64,000 bases of DNA from Verrucomicrobiia bacterium (GTDB taxonomy: Bacteria > Verrucomicrobiota > Verrucomicrobiia > Limisphaerales > UBA11358), in the NCBI GenBank assembly GCA_036490295.1, contig DASXED010000126.1:1718-65717 (forward strand), given 5' to 3'. A program made the translations under genes and the position numbers. The notes beneath the pieces are model-generated. The model ran no database searches and was not told where the DNA came from. It saw only the letters and a program-made list of their open reading frames with translations. Below are positions 8,900 to 34,816 of this stretch, one piece after another; the first letter of the stretch is position 1, and every line of letters begins with the position of its first letter.

Positions 8900-9187
8900 T
8901 TAGTCCACGATTTTTGGAACGATGAAAAGTCCGCTGACCTGTTTGGGCGCGTTGCGCATGGCTTCTTCGTGCGTAAGCGACGGGCGGATTTCGTCGGCGC
9001 GCGTGACATTGACCATCGGCACGGCGTGCGCGGTCGGCTCGACGTTCGTCACGTCAAGCTCCTTCAACTTTTCGATGTAGCCGAGGATGTGGCCGAGTTG
9101 CGCGGCGAGTTTTTTTTCCTCGTCGGGCGTGAGCGCGATGCGTGCGAGATGCGCGACGTATTTGATGTCTAAATCACTTGCTGCCAT
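8900..9187 (-). CDS. gatC: Glu-tRNA(Gln)/Asp-tRNA(Asn) amidotransferase subunit C
   Basis: 'VAHLARIALTPDEEKKLAAQLGHILGYIEKLKELDV..VEPTAH' is typical of GatC. Start placed at the ATG at 9187 (MAASDLDIKYV). Confidence 0.9.
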   Translation of the reverse strand: MAASDLDIKYVAHLARIALTPDEEKKLAAQLGHILGYIEKLKELDVTNVEPTAHAVPMVNVTRADEIRPSLTHEEAMRNAPKQVSGLFIVPKIVD

Positions 9188-25890: not shown

Positions 25891-26949
25891 TCATCTTTGC
25901 GGAATGATCCTGTCCGGATGCCGCGCGCGGCTGACCGCCGTGTCGTAGCTGATCTGGCATTTGCAATACAGGTCGTAAAGGCAATTGTCCATCAGCAGCA
26001 TTCCCTCCTTGCGCCCGGTCTGAATCGTGTTTTCCAAATGGTGAAGCTGGTTTTCCCGAATCTGGTTGCGGACGGCTCCGTTGGCGATCAGCAATTCATA
26101 GGCGAGAATCCGGCGCGACCTGTCCGCCGCCGGCAGCAAATCCTGCGAGATGATTCCCTGAAGCGCGTTGGCAAGTTGTAAAATAATCTGCCGCTGCGCG
26201 TTGCCGTCAAAAACGCCGATGATGCGCTCGACTGCGTGCGAGACGTTCGGCGAGTGCATCGTGGCGAGAACCAGATGGCCGGTTTCCGCCGCCGTCAACG
26301 CCGTGGAAATCGCCTCGTGATCGCGCATCTCGCCCACGACAATCACGTCGGGGTCCTGCCGCAAAACGTGGATGAGAGCGCGGTTGAACGAACGCACGTC
26401 CGTTAAAACTTCCTGCTGCACGACGATGGCGCGCTTGTTTTGGTGGACGAATTCAATCGGGTCTTCAATCGTGACGATTTTGCAGCGGCGCTCGCTGTTG
26501 ACGAGGTCAACGAGATAATTGAGCGTCGTGGTCTTGCCCGCGCCGGTCGGGCCGGTGATGAGGACGAGTCCATTCGGCTTGCGCGCGAGTTCCTCGATTT
26601 TTTTGGGAAGGCCAAGCTCGTCGCGCGTGGCGATTTTGTCGCCGCAAAAGCGGAAGCTCATTTCAGGATGCCCGTTGCGGCGGTAAAAAGTCATGCGGAC
26701 GCGCCCGGCCGCGCTGTGCAGCAGCGAAATGCAAAGCTCCCAATCCTGCTCGAATTTTTTCCTCTGCTGTTCGTTCAACAGGCTGTCCGTCATGGCCGTG
26801 ATGTCCTCGATGGTCAATGCGTCCTCATCCGCGATGATGATTTCTCCGTTGACGCGAAACGCGGGCGGAACGCCGGTCACGAGATGAAGGTCGGAGGCGT
26901 CAAAGTCATTGACGGCGGATAAAAGGCGGTCCAAAAGCGGCGTGCTCAT
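25891..26949 (-). CDS. PilT/PilU-family hexameric ATPase (352 aa)
   Basis: 'ASDLHLVTGVPPAFRVNG', Walker A 'GPTGAGKTT', 'IVTIEDPIEF', 'ALRQDPDVIVVGEMRD', 'TGHLVLATMHS'. Start at MSTPLLDRL (ATG at 26949; ATGA overlap with the TPR gene). The 445-aa track ORF is an N-terminal over-extension. Confidence 0.9.
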   Translation of the reverse strand: MSTPLLDRLLSAVNDFDASDLHLVTGVPPAFRVNGEIIIADEDALTIEDITAMTDSLLNEQQRKKFEQDWELCISLLHSAAGRVRMTFYRRNGHPEMSFRFCGDKIATRDELGLPKKIEELARKPNGLVLITGPTGAGKTTTLNYLVDLVNSERRCKIVTIEDPIEFVHQNKRAIVVQQEVLTDVRSFNRALIHVLRQDPDVIVVGEMRDHEAISTALTAAETGHLVLATMHSPNVSHAVERIIGVFDGNAQRQIILQLANALQGIISQDLLPAADRSRRILAYELLIANGAVRNQIRENQLHHLENTIQTGRKEGMLLMDNCLYDLYCKCQISYDTAVSRARHPDRIIPQR

Positions 26950-27725
26950 CGTTTGAAAAGTTGCCGCAACCAGTCGCGCGTGCGCGGCCAGAACCCGGCT
27001 TGGGAAAGCCGGACGAGCGCGAGGTCGGCTTCGCGGCAATTCCGGTTCAACTGCAACGCCTGTGTGAAAGAGGTCTCGGCGACGCTGACCAAACCGAGTG
27101 CCTGCTGGCATTGGCCGAGTTCGAGCCACAGCAGAAAATGGCCGGCGTTCCATTCGACGGCTTGTTGCAGCAATTTCAGCGCGAGCACAAATTGACTGTA
27201 ATAAAAACGGATGCGCGACGCCAGCCATGCCGTGAACCAGTCTTTTGGCGCGAGCAGCAGCGCTTTCTCAAAACAATAATCTGCGCGATGCTCTTTGCGC
27301 GCGAGCATCACGTCGCCGCGCGCGAGCCAGACGTAGGGCGTGTCGCCGCGCTCTTCAATCGAGGCGTCGGAAAATGCCAGCGCGCCCTGCAAGTCGCCGC
27401 TGCGCGCGAGGGCGACGGCTTTGGCGGCGAGCAATTCGGGATATTGCGGAAAGCGTTCCAGCGCCTTGTCCGCCCACAATTTTGCCTCGCGGAATTCTCC
27501 GAGTTCGACCAGCATCCGCACCTGCGCCGTCCACGCGGCGGCATTTTGCGGATTGTATTCCAGGACTTTCGAGTAAAAACGCAGCGCCTGCTCAAAGTCG
27601 CCGTTCTCAAACGCCGCGCGCGCCTCGCCGAAATAATAAGCCTCGTCCTTGGCCGGCAGTTTTTGTTCCTGCTGCCACTGGTCTTCGGACTCGCCGCCCA
27701 ATTCAAGATTTCCAAAACGGCTCAT
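26946..27725 (-). CDS. TPR-repeat protein
   Basis: Several TPR-like units ('AYYFGEARAAFENGDFEQALRFYSKVLEYNPQNAAAW...'). Start at MSRFGNLELGG (ATG at 27725; ATGA overlap with the upstream stop). Confidence 0.8.
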   Translation of the reverse strand: MSRFGNLELGGESEDQWQQEQKLPAKDEAYYFGEARAAFENGDFEQALRFYSKVLEYNPQNAAAWTAQVRMLVELGEFREAKLWADKALERFPQYPELLAAKAVALARSGDLQGALAFSDASIEERGDTPYVWLARGDVMLARKEHRADYCFEKALLLAPKDWFTAWLASRIRFYYSQFVLALKLLQQAVEWNAGHFLLWLELGQCQQALGLVSVAETSFTQALQLNRNCREADLALVRLSQAGFWPRTRDWLRQLFKR

Positions 27726-28609
27726 GGTAAAATTTGTTGCCGCCAGAACCAGTGTTTGAACGGTTTGCCGACAAATTGTTTTTCCGGAACATTTGCCATT
27801 TGCAGCATGGCGGATGAAATGTCCGCTTCGCCCACGTTCCAATTACCGCTTATGGCAATATTTGGCCAGATGAACCAGTGATTTTCCGGCACAAGCCAAT
27901 TTCCCGATGTCGGCATGTGCGGCAGAAGCGGCTGCGGAACGCCGTTCACGGTGAAACTATTCGTCGAAAATTCCACGCGGTCGCCGGCCATTGCCAGCAC
28001 CGGACCCAAGCCCAAACTGGTCCGGTTCAAAACGCCATTGCCTCTGTGGTTTGAAAAATAATATCCTGAAAGCCTGTAAGCGACCCGGTCGCCGCGTTTG
28101 ATGTCATGAGCCGGAACGAATTTTTCAACGATGACTGCATGGCCGTTCACGCGCAGAGGCAGCAGCCAGTGTGTCCGCAGCGGCGTATAAAGGAACAAGC
28201 CCAAAACCAACATCGCTCCGATTGTAAAAAGAATGCGGGATTGAAATGGTTCATGGTTCAGCCACGGGCTGCAATAATAAACCAGGCCGGTGACATGAAT
28301 CGAAAGCAAAAGTCCGAACGCGTAATTGCCAACTGGATAGCCGAGCCAGACAATGAAGCAAAGGAAAAGCAGCGCGCACGCGGCCAGCGCGGCCTTTCCG
28401 TAAAGTCGCGGGCCGCGAAGATAAACCGCAAGGCCGGGAACCAAAACGCCTCCGACGAGTCCGCCGACCGTGATTTCATTTGGAAGACGAATGCGATCCA
28501 GCGCAAGCCCGTGGCGCACCGCAGAGCCAAGATAAAAAATGCGGGCATACCATCGCGCGCGACGCGGATAGTAGGGCGAAGTCATTTTTTCGCTGGAGTT
28601 CAACGCCAT
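27722..28609 (-). CDS. Polytopic membrane protein with a C-terminal signal-peptidase-I-like (S26/S24 fold) domain, copy 1
   Basis: Four or five TM helices, then 'IKRGDRVAY...GPVLAMAGDRVEF..FTVNGVP...VPENHWFIWPN...VPEKQFVGKPF'. This follows the S26 sequence pattern, but I see no SM/K catalytic dyad. Confidence 0.5.
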   Translation of the reverse strand: MALNSSEKMTSPYYPRRARWYARIFYLGSAVRHGLALDRIRLPNEITVGGLVGGVLVPGLAVYLRGPRLYGKAALAACALLFLCFIVWLGYPVGNYAFGLLLSIHVTGLVYYCSPWLNHEPFQSRILFTIGAMLVLGLFLYTPLRTHWLLPLRVNGHAVIVEKFVPAHDIKRGDRVAYRLSGYYFSNHRGNGVLNRTSLGLGPVLAMAGDRVEFSTNSFTVNGVPQPLLPHMPTSGNWLVPENHWFIWPNIAISGNWNVGEADISSAMLQMANVPEKQFVGKPFKHWFWRQQILP

Positions 28610-28659
28610 TGGTCAATGTTGTAATGCGCCGCCAATCCAAGATTTCCAAAACGGTTCAT
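28600..28659 (-). pseudogene. Chimeric duplication-junction ORF (TPR-gene 5' end fused to DUF2997-gene 3' end)
   Basis: Translates to MNRFGNLGLAAHYNIDQWR*. The first 7 codons match the TPR start MSRFGNLELGG (27725 downward). The last codons match the end of the DUF2997 gene '..RYNIDQRH*' (29548-29588). The ATGA overlap with the upstream stop is retained. Confidence 0.65.
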
Positions 28660-29501
28660 GGTAAAATTTGTTTCCGAAAAAACCATCGTTTGAACGGGCG
28701 TCCGACAAATTCCTCGCGCGACACAATCGTCGGCACAATCGTCATTTGCTGGGTGACATCGCCTTGGGTTGCAAAGATTCCAAACGTTGCAAAGATTCCA
28801 AACCCTTCATGTCTATAATATCTGGAAAACTGCGCCCGCATGAGCCAGTGCTTTTCCGGCACGTCCACGGAATCCACATGGTCGCCGCCAAGCCCGATCA
28901 CGGGACCGAGAATAAACCCGGCATCCTTCACTTCATGGCCGCCGAAGCTGGCGGAACTTCTAAACGCCGCCCAATCGCCGAGCTTGAGCGAATCCGGCGT
29001 TGTCCTGACTGAAACAACTATCACGCGATCGCCCACGCGCAACGGCATCAGCCAGTGATTTTGAATTGTGCCGCGCAGTGGCGTGTAAATTGCCAGACCC
29101 AAAATCAGCATCGTTCCGACGGTAAAAAGAATCCGGTAACGAAACGGCTCATGGTTCAGCCACGGGCTGCAATAATAAACCAGACCCGTGGTGTGAATCG
29201 AAAGCATCAGGCCGAACGCAAGGTTCGCGGCGGGATAACCGAGCCATACGATGAAAATGGTCAACAGCAGCGCGCAACCGGCCATCGCCATCTTTCCCCA
29301 AAGTCGCGGCCCGCGAAGATAAACCGCCAGGCCGGGAATCAAAATGCCGCCAATAAGCCCGCCGATGGTAATTTCTTTTGGCAAACAAATGCGATCCAGC
29401 GCGAGCCGGTGGCGCACCGCGAGTCCCAAATAAAAAACGCGGCAATACCATCGCGCGCGGCGCGGATAGTAAGGCGAGTTAAATTTTTCGCTGGAGTTCA
29501 A
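28656..29501 (-). CDS. Polytopic membrane protein with a degenerate S26-like C-terminal domain, copy 2 (tandem paralog)
   Basis: The N-terminal roughly 150 aa are almost colinear with copy 1 ('SPYYPRRARWY..FYLG.AVRH.LALDRI.LP.EIT.GGL.GG.L.PGLAVYLRGPRL'). The C-terminal domain has diverged. The apparent start is TTG at 29501. Confidence 0.5.
   Translation of the reverse strand: MNSSEKFNSPYYPRRARWYCRVFYLGLAVRHRLALDRICLPKEITIGGLIGGILIPGLAVYLRGPRLWGKMAMAGCALLLTIFIVWLGYPAANLAFGLMLSIHTTGLVYYCSPWLNHEPFRYRILFTVGTMLILGLAIYTPLRGTIQNHWLMPLRVGDRVIVVSVRTTPDSLKLGDWAAFRSSASFGGHEVKDAGFILGPVIGLGGDHVDSVDVPEKHWLMRAQFSRYYRHEGFGIFATFGIFATQGDVTQQMTIVPTIVSREEFVGRPFKRWFFRKQILP
28768..28803. repeat. Perfect 18-bp tandem duplication inside paralog copy 2
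   Basis: GTTGCAAAGATTCCAAAC x2 (28768-28785 and 28786-28803). It is in frame and gives 'FGIFATFGIFAT'. Confidence 0.9.
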
Positions 29502-29748: not shown

Positions 29749-29910
29749 AAAATTAGTTTTGAAAACTGATCTCTGGATAATGTTTGGATAAAAAGTGGCG
29801 GCATGAACTGCGATTACCCGGACAAATATGCTTCGAAAGCTGGCGCGCGTGTTCAACAAAATCCGCTGGCGACGCGCCAGCCTTGATGAGGCGAGAAATG
29901 CAAGTAGGCA

Positions 29911-30312
29911 TCATGGCTTGGCCTTTTGTAAAACCATGTCCTTATCTATACCATCCCACCTCACAACCAAATCATCATTGTTCAAACTAACAATGCGCCC
30001 ATGCAAGCCGTGCGCCATCAATGTCGCGTTTGTCCGGCTGTCGTTTGTAACCGTGATAATCAAATCTCCATCTTTGGCCAGCAATGTCCCTTCTTCTTTG
30101 ACCGTAATGCCATTCGTGAGGCCGGTAATCTCGAAATCGAAGTTGCCGGATGGACTCACAGCTCTCGTGCTTCGGAAACTGTCGCCCTTCTCAACCCATG
30201 TCCCTGTCAATTGCCGCTGAATCTTTGCATCGCTGCGACCGCATCCCGTCAATAGCAAACCCAAGAATATAAATATGAAACAGTTGAATGTTGAATGTTC
30301 GATGTTTTGCAT
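29911..30312 (-). CDS. Lipoprotein, function unknown (133 aa)
   Basis: Lipobox 'LLLTGCG'. The gene is more AT-rich than its neighbours and lies 4 nt downstream of the DUF1257-like stop. Confidence 0.6.
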   Translation of the reverse strand: MQNIEHSTFNCFIFIFLGLLLTGCGRSDAKIQRQLTGTWVEKGDSFRSTRAVSPSGNFDFEITGLTNGITVKEEGTLLAKDGDLIITVTNDSRTNATLMAHGLHGRIVSLNNDDLVVRWDGIDKDMVLQKAKP

Positions 30313-31112: not shown

Positions 31113-32678
31113 TCAAAATTCCATCCGCCGCACGGTGTCGCCTTTCTTGGCGTCGCGCGCCACACTGGCGTTGCGCGCGCGGCCTTCGGCCCAGCTTCGC
31201 AGCCGGTTGATTTGTTCGTCCATCGTTTTGGCCAGCGGCACGGTTTGCGACAATGCCGTTTTCACATCGTCCATCGTCATTTCCTGCTTGGCGTAAAAAG
31301 CGTCGTAAAGCGCGCTGTTGATCGCCTCCTCGATTTCCGCGCCGCTGAATTCCGCGCTGCCATTCGCCAAAGTTTCCAAATCAAACTTCGTCGCGTCGCG
31401 CTTGCGCTTCGTGATGTGAATCCGAAAAATTTCCTTCCGCTCTTCGGGACTCGGCAAATCCACGAAGAAAATTTCGTCCAATCGTCCTTTGCGCAGCAAT
31501 TCCGGCGGCAGTTGCGAAATGTCATTCGCCGTCGCCACGACAAAAACCGGCGCGGTTTTTTCCGAAAGCCACGTCAGAAAAGTTCCGAACACGCGCGCCG
31601 TCGTGCCGCCGTCCGTCGAGCCGGAGCCTTGCGAACCCGCGAACGCCTTGTCAATTTCGTCCACCCACAAAATCGCGGGCGCGACCGATTCCGCCACCGC
31701 AATCGCACGGCGCACATTTTCTTCCGACGAACCGACCAGGCTGCCGAACATCCGCCCCATGTCGAACCGCAGCAGCGGCAATTGCCACAAGTTTGAAACC
31801 GCCTTCGCGCACAAACTTTTTCCGCAGCCTTGCACGCCGAGCATCAAAATTCCTTTCGGAAACGGCAGGCCGAACGCGCGCGCCTCGTTCGTGAACGCGA
31901 TGGAACGTTTGCCCAGCCAGTCTTTCAGCACGCTCATGCCGCCGACATTCGTGAAGCTTTCATCCGTCGCGTAATACTCCAGCAGGCCGCTTTTGCGGAT
32001 GATCTGCTGTTTCTCGGCAAAAACGTCGTTCACGTCCTCGGCGCTCAACCGCTCATCCTTCACGATGATTTTTGCGAAAACATTTTCCGCCTCGCCGAGC
32101 GTCAGGCCGAGCGCGGCTTGCAGCAACCGTTCGCGCCCCGCGTCGTCCAATTCGATTTTCACCTGATGAAACTGCTTCACGTCAGCGATGATTTTGTCGA
32201 GCAACACGGCGAGGTCGTCGCGCGACGGCAGCGGATGATTGAGCAGCGTGATTTCCTTTTCCAATTCCGTCGGGATTTCCATCACGGGCGAGACCAGCAC
32301 GATGGTCTTGAAACTGTTCTTCAAGTGCAGCGCGATCTCCTTGAGCTTGCGCGTCACGGCAAAATTATTTTTCGTCAGGAACGGGTGAAAATCCTTGAAA
32401 ATGAAAATCGCCGGCTCGACCTGCTCGATGACCTGATCCAGCGCCATCAACGGGTCTTTCGTCGCCGCGTTGCGATGCTTTTGCGACTGGATGGAAGTCC
32501 CCGCCGGCACGATGCCCGTGCTGTAACTCCACTCAAAAACTTTTTTCTGGCGCTTCTGCGCGATCTCGACGATCAGGCTTTGGACGCGCGACTCCTCGCT
32601 GCTCAAAATGTAAAGGATCGGATAGCGCGCGCGGATGAGCGTTTCGAGTTCGGTTTGGAAATTTACGATTGTTTGCAT
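31113..32678 (-). CDS. AAA+ ATPase, Ycf46-like (single AAA module with a long N-terminal domain)
   Basis: Walker A '[14 protein letters not shown]', Walker B '[11 protein letters not shown]', '[29 protein letters not shown]'. The N-terminus '[13 protein letters not shown]' is typical of the Ycf46 group. Confidence 0.9.
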
Positions 32679-32863
32679 ATTTTTTGACCCGAGTTTCGCC
32701 GGCTGCCAATTCCTGCGCGCTGGCGCATCAATTTATCCTCTGGATTCAATTCCGACAACAATTTGGCCATCGTCGGCGTGATATTTTGCGCGAGGATTCT
32801 GCCGTCTGGCAAAATAAGCAATTCGGACAAACCGATTTCAGCCTCACGATGTTTGTTTTTCAT
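32663..32863 (-). CDS. Hypothetical small protein (66 aa)
   Basis: ORF only. It fills the gap between the 318-aa gene and the AAA+ gene and overlaps both (by 20 nt and 16 nt). Confidence 0.35.
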   Translation of the reverse strand: MKNKHREAEIGLSELLILPDGRILAQNITPTMAKLLSELNPEDKLMRQRAGIGSRRNSGQKICKQS

Positions 32864-33800
32864 ACTTTATTCCCAAGCTCTTATTTTTGGCCTCAACTTC
32901 TTCTTCGGTCATCCAAGCCAAGCCTGCATAAGTAGGATGTCCGCTGTAAGGGAGATTAAGGCGATACCGCGTGTCGGTAATGCGCGTTTTCTTCGTTAGT
33001 TCCGGCACAAATGAAAAGTTTTGCAAAGGATGAACAGCCTGAATCTTGGCCTCAACTGTATAACTTACGGTGCACTTGGCTTCGCCCCCTACCGGCCAGT
33101 TGGGGCCAAACACCGTTAATTTGAAACCACTTGGCATACGCATTTTGGAAAAACTGATCCAATCTGTCGTTTCAAAATTGGCATGAAGAAAACCAGCATC
33201 AAATGGCGGCGGATATTTTTTCAGCCGACTACCACCTTCGTTCACATGGAGATATATGCCTTCGGAATGCCAGGCTATTTCGCTGATGAAATTTGAGTCA
33301 TTTAGTTTCCATTTGGCGGGCAAAGACAACGTCGTCGGAACGGCATCGAGAAAAGAATTAATTATGATAAACAGTGGAGCGGCGATTCGATTGTCCTTCC
33401 GAGAAAGAAAGTAGCTGGACGAGCAATAGGCAATCCAGAGCGGATAGATAAAATCTAAATTCAAACCCACGAGCGCATTGCCATGTCGCACTCGGCCTTG
33501 AGCAGTGAGAATGTCTTTAACATTGGAAAATTCCGGGTTGTTTTCGTCAAAACTTTTTAGTTCATAAATTGTCGCTCCATCACAGCCCATCTCATCATAT
33601 TTAATGCCATTTGCAACCTCATCCTCATGGAGATTTGTCGTCCGAATTTTCCACTGCTGTCCTTTTCTGGCGACGACGAAGTGTCTTGAATGTTTAACCT
33701 GTTCTGTCCCGAACTGGCTGCGACATTCAGTCAAATAAACAATGTTCCCTTCCATTTGGAACTCTGGCTCGTAGCCGTTGGTTTGATTTGGAATTTTCAT
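32844..33800 (-). CDS. Hypothetical protein (318 aa), no recognisable domain
   Basis: Long ORF in a visibly AT-richer segment. ATGA overlap with the radical SAM stop. No signal peptide or TM helix obvious. Confidence 0.6.
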   Translation of the reverse strand: MKIPNQTNGYEPEFQMEGNIVYLTECRSQFGTEQVKHSRHFVVARKGQQWKIRTTNLHEDEVANGIKYDEMGCDGATIYELKSFDENNPEFSNVKDILTAQGRVRHGNALVGLNLDFIYPLWIAYCSSSYFLSRKDNRIAAPLFIIINSFLDAVPTTLSLPAKWKLNDSNFISEIAWHSEGIYLHVNEGGSRLKKYPPPFDAGFLHANFETTDWISFSKMRMPSGFKLTVFGPNWPVGGEAKCTVSYTVEAKIQAVHPLQNFSFVPELTKKTRITDTRYRLNLPYSGHPTYAGLAWMTEEEVEAKNKSLGIKYEKQTS

Positions 33801-34666
33801 TCAATTAAATTTAGTCCGCATTCTTTGGCAATCTCGTTGGCGCGTTCCGTTTCGGCTCTCGAAATCGGGCTTGATAATTCTTTATGCCGCCGCGCATGCC
33901 GCGCCGGCCAGAAACCGGAGCGCAAGTTCACTTTGACGCCGGGCAGATTTTCCGCGATCCATTCCGCAACCGGCCTCCAGCAGCAATCAATGTGTCTAGG
34001 CATGAGCAGATGGCGCACAATCAATTCGCTGTGCTCGTTCGCCCAAAGTAGATTTTCCTGAACGACGCGGACGTAATCTGAAATTTTCGCCAGCCGCCGC
34101 GCGCAATCGTCGTTGCCGAATTTGAAATCCGCCAGCCAGACATCGAACATTCCGTCGAGCAATTCGCGCGCCTGCGCCGAGCCGTGCGCGTTCGTTTTCC
34201 AAATCAAGCGCGCCGAGTCCGGCAATTCGGCGACCAATTCCAGCGCGGCGGGCAGATGAATCGTCGGCTCGCCGCCGAGAACCATGATTGTCCGCGCGCC
34301 GTTCCGCAAAGCCGCTCTTGCTTTCGCCGCCATTTCATTTGCATCGAAATTTTCACCGGCGCGCGGATTCCAGCTTTCCGCGCCGGTGATGCAAAAATCG
34401 CAGCGCAAATCGCATCCGCTCAACGCGATTGCAAACGTCGGGATCAATTCCAGTTCGTCCGAGACTTCCAATTGCGCGGAAAAAAATCGCGGCGCGGCTC
34501 CGGCGCGGCACAGGCCAAATTCTCCCGCGAGCCGGTTGACGCCGCAATCGTGCGCACAAAACCGGCAGTCGGCCAGCATCGCGCGCGCAATCGCCGCGCG
34601 TTCCCGCGCGATGGAAGCGCGGGTCAAAATCTTCGCCTCCGGTTGAATTGTTTCAGCGCAAATCAT
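33797..34666 (-). CDS. Radical SAM enzyme, PflX/activase-like (COG1313-type)
   Basis: CX3CX2C 'CDLRCDFC', an additional N-terminal Cys cluster 'CRFCAHDCGVNRLAGEFGLC', 'WLADFKFGNDDCA', 'LIVRHLLMP'. Confidence 0.8.
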   Translation of the reverse strand: MICAETIQPEAKILTRASIARERAAIARAMLADCRFCAHDCGVNRLAGEFGLCRAGAAPRFFSAQLEVSDELELIPTFAIALSGCDLRCDFCITGAESWNPRAGENFDANEMAAKARAALRNGARTIMVLGGEPTIHLPAALELVAELPDSARLIWKTNAHGSAQARELLDGMFDVWLADFKFGNDDCARRLAKISDYVRVVQENLLWANEHSELIVRHLLMPRHIDCCWRPVAEWIAENLPGVKVNLRSGFWPARHARRHKELSSPISRAETERANEIAKECGLNLIE

Positions 34667-34687
34667 TTCTAAATAAATGGTGGTGTC

Positions 34688-34804
34688 TTAATTTGAAAAC
34701 GAGCGTGCCAACAAATTCAGGTAATGCCCTTTTATGCAAAAGCTGGCGAGAACCAGTATGGCAATCAGCAGCCAAATCAAAATTTTCCATTTTTGGACCG
34801 TCAT
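34688..34804 (-). CDS. Possible 38-aa single-TM peptide (below the ORF-track cutoff)
   Basis: My own translation gives MTVQKWKILIWLLIAILVLASFCIKGHYLNLLARSFSN*. Its ATG is 12 nt after the preceding stop. Confidence 0.3.
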   Translation of the reverse strand: MTVQKWKILIWLLIAILVLASFCIKGHYLNLLARSFSN

Positions 34805-34816
34805 ATCGAAATAAAT

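Follow-up and report, generated by a model that had tools for sequence, protein, structure and literature searches.

A probable horizontally exchanged accessory gene in a variable slot within a conserved operon of Verrucomicrobiota

We analysed a stretch of 64,000 nucleotides (nt) from a Verrucomicrobiia bacterium (NCBI GenBank assembly GCA_036490295.1, contig DASXED010000126.1, positions 1,718 to 65,717; the window in the following) with a focus on two open reading frames (ORFs) of 318 and 66 amino acids (aa), which lie between a radical S-adenosylmethionine (rSAM) gene and an AAA+ ATPase gene. An earlier note on this DNA had read both as AT-richer orphans, i.e., as a variable specificity or effector component or as a recently captured gene. 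Our results point to a division between the two: the small 66-aa ORF is a core gene of the surrounding operon, while the 318-aa ORF (p318) is an optional, horizontally exchanged cassette in a variable slot. We assign this overall explanation a probability of about 0.72. The features concerned, all on the minus strand, are

33797-34666, minus: rSAM gene, 289 aa, PFL-activase/NrdG-like without equivalog; conserved left flank of the slot
33797-33800, minus: ATGA overlap of the rSAM stop (TGA) and the p318 start (ATG), read from the sequence; left slot edge
32844-33800, minus: p318 (318-aa ORF), probable accessory cassette gene; predicted soluble, beta-rich product of a family without a name
32844-32863, minus: 20-nt overlap of the p318 3' end and the small-ORF start, read from the sequence
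32663-32863, minus: small ORF (66 aa), conserved core gene
32663-32678, minus: 16-nt overlap of the small-ORF stop and the AAA+ start, read from the sequence
31113-32678, minus: AAA+ ATPase gene, 521 aa; conserved right flank of the slot

All three overlaps are present as previously described.

What lies between rSAM and the small ORF varies, i.e., this slot is empty or differently filled in related arrays. For its census, 80 loci were drawn with the AAA+ N-domain and thus independently of p318; about 95 related loci were available overall. In about 32 loci, the rSAM-AAA+ distance is ~160-205 nt, which corresponds to the small ORF alone. p318 is found in 4-5 loci, and 19 loci carry extra sequence, some of them only as an extension of the small ORF; other ORFs are present in 13 distinct loci. 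Expressed as shares, ~57% of the arrays have an empty slot, about a third contain unrelated small genes there and ~8% contain p318. Three arrays fetched via the small ORF (L013, L014, L015) show the arrangement without p318, where the rSAM stop and the small-ORF start share the ATGA. That orthologous arrays might carry a different gene at this site had been raised before and is what we observe.

Among the occupants, a two-transmembrane (two-TM) protein of 86-104 aa recurs, which begins with MSDFLFQPRSPLIGWFILME, has no Pfam family and is encoded at L018:1181-1441, L019:5546-5818, L025:3220-3492 and L059:1617-1931. Further occupants without family are proteins of 92, 123, 159 and 189 aa as well as a related pair of 107 and 124 aa. 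The remaining ones are a 175-aa multi-TM protein, a prepilin-type protein (N_methyl) and a TonB_C lipoprotein followed by a TM protein. The replacement of slot contents is directly visible in pairs of closely related loci. L028 (empty) and L029 (189-aa protein) show 97.6% nt identity in the flanks on both sides of a 598-nt indel, and L007 and L018, whose slots contain p318 and the two-TM protein, respectively, enclose these unrelated contents with flanks of 95% and 94% identity.

Where p318 is present, its alleles do not follow their flanks. A neighbour-joining tree of the AAA+ N-domain scatters the p318 arrays among empty and otherwise-occupied arrays, and pairwise identities of p318 and of the AAA+ N-domain (computed over 250 aa) are uncorrelated (Spearman 0.005 over 66 pairs). 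L022 and L023, for example, are 100% identical in the AAA+ N-domain and share 96% nt identity in the downstream flank (p318 3' end into AAA+), while their p318 proteins are only 42% identical. The respective identities are 98.4% and 41% for L007 vs. L011, and 78% and 74% for L001 vs. L023. This is also reflected in the synonymous divergence (dS) between L004 and L044, i.e., 0.80 for p318 compared to 0.24 for AAA+ and 0.03 for DUF1257. The p318 clade spans 37-100% identity with divergence down to 37-43%. The simplest history is one original insertion, followed by divergence into at least two deep allele types and their repeated transfer, replacement and loss. Homologous recombination in the conserved flanks would be the simplest route for this movement between lineages, such that deep p318 alleles were shuffled between near-identical backgrounds.

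The AT-richness of the segment is confirmed by windowed GC content and by GC content at third codon positions (GC3). Segment 32663-33800 shows a GC content of 0.449, compared to a mean of 0.551 (sd 0.030) for same-length windows over the 64 kb, and together with its immediate neighbours it forms the lowest-GC windows of that length (1.1 kb). The deviation is greatest at synonymous positions: GC3 is 0.455 for p318, 0.659 for rSAM and 0.745 for AAA+, which places p318 4th-lowest among the 54 long non-overlapping ORFs of the window. Across loci, p318 GC3 ranges from 0.43 to 0.53 in 13/13 genes, both deep allele types included, with flanking values of 0.65-0.75 (rSAM) and 0.75-0.80 (AAA+). The same trend is seen for the other slot inserts, 13 of 14 of which have a GC3 under that of both flanks, and for P0110, a remote p318 relative whose gene has more AT than the genes around it in a genome of 44% GC. 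As low GC3 is common to all p318 genes and most other inserts, AT-richness belongs to the slot content and does not mark a recent arrival. A one-off foreign signature should ameliorate over such divergence, so the persistently low GC3 suggests either that accessory genes keep being exchanged within an AT-richer pool or that they experience weaker selection or biased gene conversion. The earlier suggestion of a recently captured gene therefore holds for capture and exchange but not for recency, given the 37-43% identity and the low GC3 in both deep allele types. p318 appears, from sequence comparison, to be a captured, exchanged and selected accessory cassette that is not recent. Its case shows that AT-richness and an orphan-like look are compatible with old age, selection and mobility combined. 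The lowest GC3 of any long ORF in the window is found elsewhere, at 43083-43616 (minus strand; GC 0.429, GC3 0.388). This ORF encodes 177 aa of Clp_N repeats (Pfam 1e-33) as a stand-alone protein; a gene of equal length close to the operon in L001 bears no relation to it.

The label orphan applies to neither ORF. For p318, we find 57 clusters of close homologues with 39-100% identity, all metagenomic or from metagenome-assembled genomes (MAGs) of Verrucomicrobiota; one homologue is identical to an NCBI protein from a 'Verrucomicrobiae bacterium' MAG. A profile built from 32 members retrieves 1,197 representative clusters at E<=1e-3, 439 of them at E<=1e-10. A third large protein search with a mixed alignment (A4), run for named remote relatives, returned essentially the same set and added nothing, and a scan of the genome collection yields 5 loci, all in Verrucomicrobiota MAGs. 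The reading frame is intact in 32 full-length aligned members from different clusters, with ~300-332 aa (most 316-332), and pairwise ratios of nonsynonymous to synonymous divergence (dN/dS) of 0.08-0.28 argue that p318 is under purifying selection. As stated before, neither protein has a recognised domain: nothing above noise is found for p318 or the small ORF in Pfam, NCBIfam or PADLOC, where p318 lacks any Pfam or NCBIfam match at E<=0.1. Likewise, ten remote relatives have no family match in the homologous region, and the p318 profile finds nothing among PDB sequences. When scanned with PADLOC for anti-phage defence, p318 gives no match and the small ORF matches Cas6 at noise level (E 0.02); AAA+ matches IetA over the generic AAA domain only, and rSAM matches pVip with E 0.0035.

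The AlphaFold (AF2) model of p318 consists almost entirely of beta strands (predicted local distance difference test, pLDDT, 82.5; predicted TM-score, pTM, 0.85). Its top Foldseek matches in the PDB are the LolA-superfamily protein NE2245 (3buu, 1e-4), LolA3 of P. gingivalis (9tp6) and a DUF1329 protein (4z48). These matches have E-values of 1e-4 to 1e-3 and probabilities of 0.99-1.0 but TM-scores of 0.31-0.48 with a root-mean-square deviation above 11 A. Given the low TM-scores, we grade the closest fold of p318 as likely, not proven, to be that of the LolA superfamily, i.e., a soluble open beta-barrel. Foldseek against viral structures gives no match.

A screen for terminal hydrophobic segments, which covered the p318 clade and its remote relatives but not the 66-aa protein, separates the two groups clearly. 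Remote relatives have a C-terminal TM segment in 111/125 and an N-terminal hydrophobic segment in 79/125 cases, while neither is found in any of 51 full-length clade proteins, including that of the window (P0001). The reported lack of a signal peptide and TM helix in p318 is thereby supported. Remote relatives are typically 350-430 aa long, with an N-terminal signal or anchor, a C-terminal TM helix and a basic tail. In some, the p318-type domain is fused behind an extracytoplasmic function (ECF) sigma factor plus TM segment or behind HEAT repeats; in a 1,089-aa protein, it precedes a Wzy_C O-antigen-ligase-type domain (fused relatives: P0066, P0118, P0097, P0169). As anchors are common in the remote relatives but found in 0/51 clade members, p318 appears to be a soluble derivative of an envelope-located domain whose signal peptide and membrane anchor were lost in the clade. 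It is predicted to be cytoplasmic, having no signal peptide.

For the small ORF, a profile search retrieves 836 clusters at E<=0.01, and the family core SELLILPDGRILxxNxTPxxAxLLxELNPxD is nearly invariant, with 18 invariant columns over 7 loci. Its dN/dS is 0.19-0.42. The AF2 model of the small protein, computed alone and not as a fusion with p318, shows a beta-hairpin and two helices with a pLDDT of ~90 for residues 11-50; relatives in the PDB were found neither by sequence profile nor by Foldseek (best E 0.39). The gene lies invariably immediately upstream of the AAA+ gene and overlaps it. A comparable overlap is found in L001 (small ORF 8956-9144, AAA+ start 9128) and in other loci. Arrays without p318 also keep the small ORF. 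Judging from protein conservation and purifying selection, the 66-aa ORF is evidently a real protein-coding core gene of the operon, and its earlier assignment to the variable element is not sustained. With these searches, two unannotated families are defined, namely the small core protein with 836 clusters and a predicted LolA-like-fold family of over 1,100 representatives, most of them envelope-anchored and some fused to ECF sigma factors.

The cassette borders can be read from the junctions. In window-type arrays, i.e., those with p318 upstream of a separate small ORF, all loci share one junction in which the small ORF restarts as MKxKxRKxE within the p318 3' end; small-ORF N-termini in arrays without p318 are diverse. 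The right cassette edge is thus the 20-nt overlap plus the first ~12 codons of the small ORF (MKxKxRKxE). Only these codons travel with the insert, while the rest of the small ORF lies outside the variable element. There are sequence hints that inserts land in, and duplicate, the start region of the small gene. The 598-nt insert of L029 (1330-1930, relative to L028) shows TGAAAACA at both ends, with ATGAAAACAGG at the start of the cassette ORF and TTGAAAACACGG at the small-ORF start. We rejected this repeat as a target-site duplication because it matches the common ATG-AAA start context and is missing from other inserts. Programmed frameshifting across the 20-nt overlap was dropped as well, since the A-run is not conserved in other loci. 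A further such hint is that the p318 N-terminus MKIPNQTNG resembles the small-ORF N-termini MKTGQTKN (L013) and MKTTTTIPNQ (P0049), both from arrays without the window-type arrangement.

A natural fusion links both proteins. In L098 and L099, rSAM is followed by a 386-aa protein and then by AAA+. The fusion (P0049, L098:1602-2762) combines an N-terminal small-ORF core (SELLILPDGQILVHNLTQPFAEIL...) with a C-terminal p318 domain, and its p318 part has a low GC3 of 0.515. This other arrangement of the two modules suggests, by the Rosetta-stone argument, that they act together or are physically linked.

As to mechanism, the small gene is translationally coupled to the AAA+ gene, and its product may serve as partner or adaptor of the ATPase. 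The hypervariable p318 slot spans from the rSAM stop codon to the conserved core of the small gene. p318 itself probably descended from a large family of envelope-anchored proteins and lost their targeting signals. Translational coupling may tie its expression to that of the operon, under control of the ECF sigma factor, and the product may bind ligands or peptides as an optional accessory to the small protein, rSAM and AAA+; our confidence in both suggestions is low. Promoter- and terminator-like sites around p318 occur at shuffle level only, i.e., the insert shows no promoter or terminator of its own.

Several points weigh against the cassette explanation. The match to the LolA fold is low in TM-score despite a Foldseek probability of 1.0, and sequence profiles give no link between p318 and the LolA-clan Pfam families (LolA, LolB, MucB_RseB, DUF1329). 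The cassette borders show no significant inverted or direct repeats and no attC-like sites, and no recombinase gene is found in the arrays examined. rSAM is likewise poorly correlated with AAA+ (Spearman 0.12); this is partly because short contigs cover rSAM only partially, such that some of the discordance may be noise. All loci are metagenome contigs or MAGs, for which occasional chimeric joins in conserved regions are possible; the exchange pattern is nevertheless repeated between independent samples and on long contigs (50-440 kb). A foreign origin accounts only partly for a GC3 that stays low over deep divergence, which needs continued exchange with an AT-rich pool, or gene-specific selection or relaxation.

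We compared the cassette explanation with four others. The reading of p318 as a recently captured orphan that provides a variable specificity or effector subunit of an rSAM/AAA+ system fits the variability of the slot, the strong allelic differences between near-identical backgrounds and the departure of the composition from the flanks. It does not fit the 57 close clusters and 1,197 remote representatives, which show that p318 is no orphan, nor the clade's 37-100% identity and the low GC3 of every p318 examined, which show that it is not recent. Furthermore, alternative occupants are unrelated proteins, not variants of one module. With more than half of the arrays empty, the slot product is not an obligatory specificity subunit; the reading is refuted as stated, and we consider it unlikely overall. 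While the empty arrays rule out the obligatory form, p318 may have a specificity or effector role in a wider sense. Less probable still is that the slot is a client position, i.e., that rSAM, the small protein, AAA+ and the TM, DUF1257 and DUF2997 proteins modify, unfold or export the envelope-type protein encoded there. p318 would then be a client or substrate, modified by rSAM or unfolded or exported by AAA+, which would explain a secreted-type domain without signal peptide; clients would be exchanged between lineages, and one of them would be a LolA-like ectodomain that no longer has its Sec signal because this route delivers it. Several occupants are indeed predicted membrane or envelope proteins (two-TM, prepilin-type, TonB_C lipoprotein) with p318 deriving from an anchored ectodomain, every occupant is tightly coupled to the rSAM gene, and P0049 joins the small protein to p318 in one chain. 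Most arrays, however, have no occupant, and the occupants share neither a recognisable leader/core architecture nor a conserved modification motif. In addition, rSAM lacks an equivalog assignment, and no observation points to export.

That p318 is instead an ancestral core gene of the operon, with gene-specific codon usage, many losses and fast vertical evolution, seems very improbable to us. The single junction structure of all window-type p318 arrays suggests one origin, and p318 is under apparent purifying selection, which both speak for this reading. Vertical descent, however, cannot produce 42% p318 identity beside a flank with 96% nt identity (L022 vs. L023), nor does it agree with a zero correlation of p318 and flank divergence, with unrelated genes at the same site and with a p318 dS above that of the flanks (L004 vs. 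L044). Virtually no weight is left for non-functional ORFs, i.e., a decaying insert plus a chance small ORF: beyond AT-rich composition and missing database annotation, nothing speaks for it, while dN/dS is well under 1 for both ORFs, p318 is intact in 32 full-length members, the AF2 models of both proteins are confident and the small ORF recurs in 836 clusters with invariant core residues.

The cassette with its slot resembles several known systems in part. Integration hotspots, flexible genomic islets and phage 'morons' are accessory genes of deviant composition between conserved genes. The p318 slot shares with them a fixed site between core genes that is empty or holds unrelated genes in close relatives, inserts that are AT-richer than the flanks, and alleles exchanged via conserved flanks. 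In contrast to these systems, it lies within the coupled ATGA junction of an operon, and, unlike morons, the insert has no own promoter or terminator and provides the gene downstream with its start context. The slot also differs from integron cassettes in lacking attC-like sites, border repeats and an integrase in the arrays examined. By analogy, we regard it as an apparent intra-operon variant of the known hotspot and moron-like behaviour, and thus as a case, backed by counts, in which the slot for accessory genes lies at a translationally coupled junction of two genes, within an operon of very high conservation.

On the protein level, the best structural matches of the p318 model come from the LolA/LolB/RseB-N/DUF1329 superfamily of open beta-barrel lipid or lipoprotein binders. 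As in this superfamily, the remote p318 relatives are envelope proteins, some of them located behind an ECF sigma factor and TM segment, which recalls RseB and its action in the sigma-E pathway. Unlike the superfamily, p318 is larger (318 aa vs. ~200), is encoded by an optional gene and has no signal peptide. An rSAM gene directly followed by a small conserved ORF is also reminiscent of clusters for ribosomally synthesised and post-translationally modified peptides (RiPPs). RiPP precursors, however, have a conserved leader and a variable core, while in the small protein it is the folded core that is conserved and the termini that vary. Also, rSAM shows no SPASM, RRE or PqqD signal of a RiPP maturase; its peptide-maturase matches have E>=0.0035, far under the NCBIfam cut-offs.

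The operon's AAA+ protein may be related to Ycf46. Downstream of the AAA+ gene, the operon encodes DUF1257 and DUF2997, as in the cyanobacterial and plastid DUF1257 (Ycf35)/DUF2997 pair. In cyanobacteria, a conserved DUF2997-ycf35-fed7 cluster is found (PMC4284462). The rSAM gene, the small protein and the variable slot are, in contrast, not described there, and our literature search on DUF1257, DUF2997, Ycf35 and Ycf46 found no functional information.

The operon as a whole is highly conserved in Limisphaerales-type Verrucomicrobiota. Its order is ECF sigma, a ~73-aa protein, an optional rhomboid, rSAM, p318, the small ORF, AAA+, a ~100-aa TM protein, DUF1257, optional inserts, DUF2997, an S26-like membrane protein, TPR and PilT. 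It is constant in loci fetched via p318 homologues, though the outer flanks differ. AAA+ (Pfam AAA, 2.3e-27) is 79-98% identical over the ~95 loci, and rSAM (Radical_SAM 2.5e-12, plus Fer4_12) is 78-81% identical among loci L008-L011; every NCBIfam match of rSAM falls far under its cut-off and none is an equivalog. With ECF sigma, rSAM, the small protein, AAA+, DUF1257 and DUF2997, the operon is uncharacterised, and the slot and the fusion provide testable handles. An Rfam scan of the whole window gives no family.

A second accessory insert lies in the slot between DUF1257 and DUF2997:

29911-30312, minus: gene of a 133-aa putative lipoprotein, GC 0.468

The spacing of the two genes is 5-12 nt in 24 loci, 572 nt in the window and up to 1,450 nt elsewhere; in L003 and L014, this slot holds a redoxin and small ORFs. 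A terminator-like hairpin follows the lipoprotein gene of the window at 29865-29881. Many arrays have the optional rhomboid-family gene (~218 aa; e.g., L004:6458-7114) downstream of the ~73-aa gene and upstream of rSAM, but it is absent from the window (34667-34816) and about a dozen other loci; its product shows weak matches to GlpG and rhombosortase models. The window further contains two adjacent ORFs of 295 and 281 aa (27722-28609 and 28656-29501, minus strand). Other loci have a single membrane-protein gene (~298 aa) that is matched by both ORFs; the window thus carries a tandem duplication, where one copy has a borderline Peptidase_S26 match. The conserved block is closed by a PilT-family ATPase at 25891-27228 (minus strand; TIGR01420, 379 bits). 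Upstream of the block, we observe a strong bidirectional hairpin (36155-36176), a 1,237-aa ORF with LTD and Ig domains (36202-39915, minus strand) and a DUF1559 prepilin-type protein (39557-40402, minus strand). In other loci, the array is flanked by genes of type II secretion systems or type IV pili.

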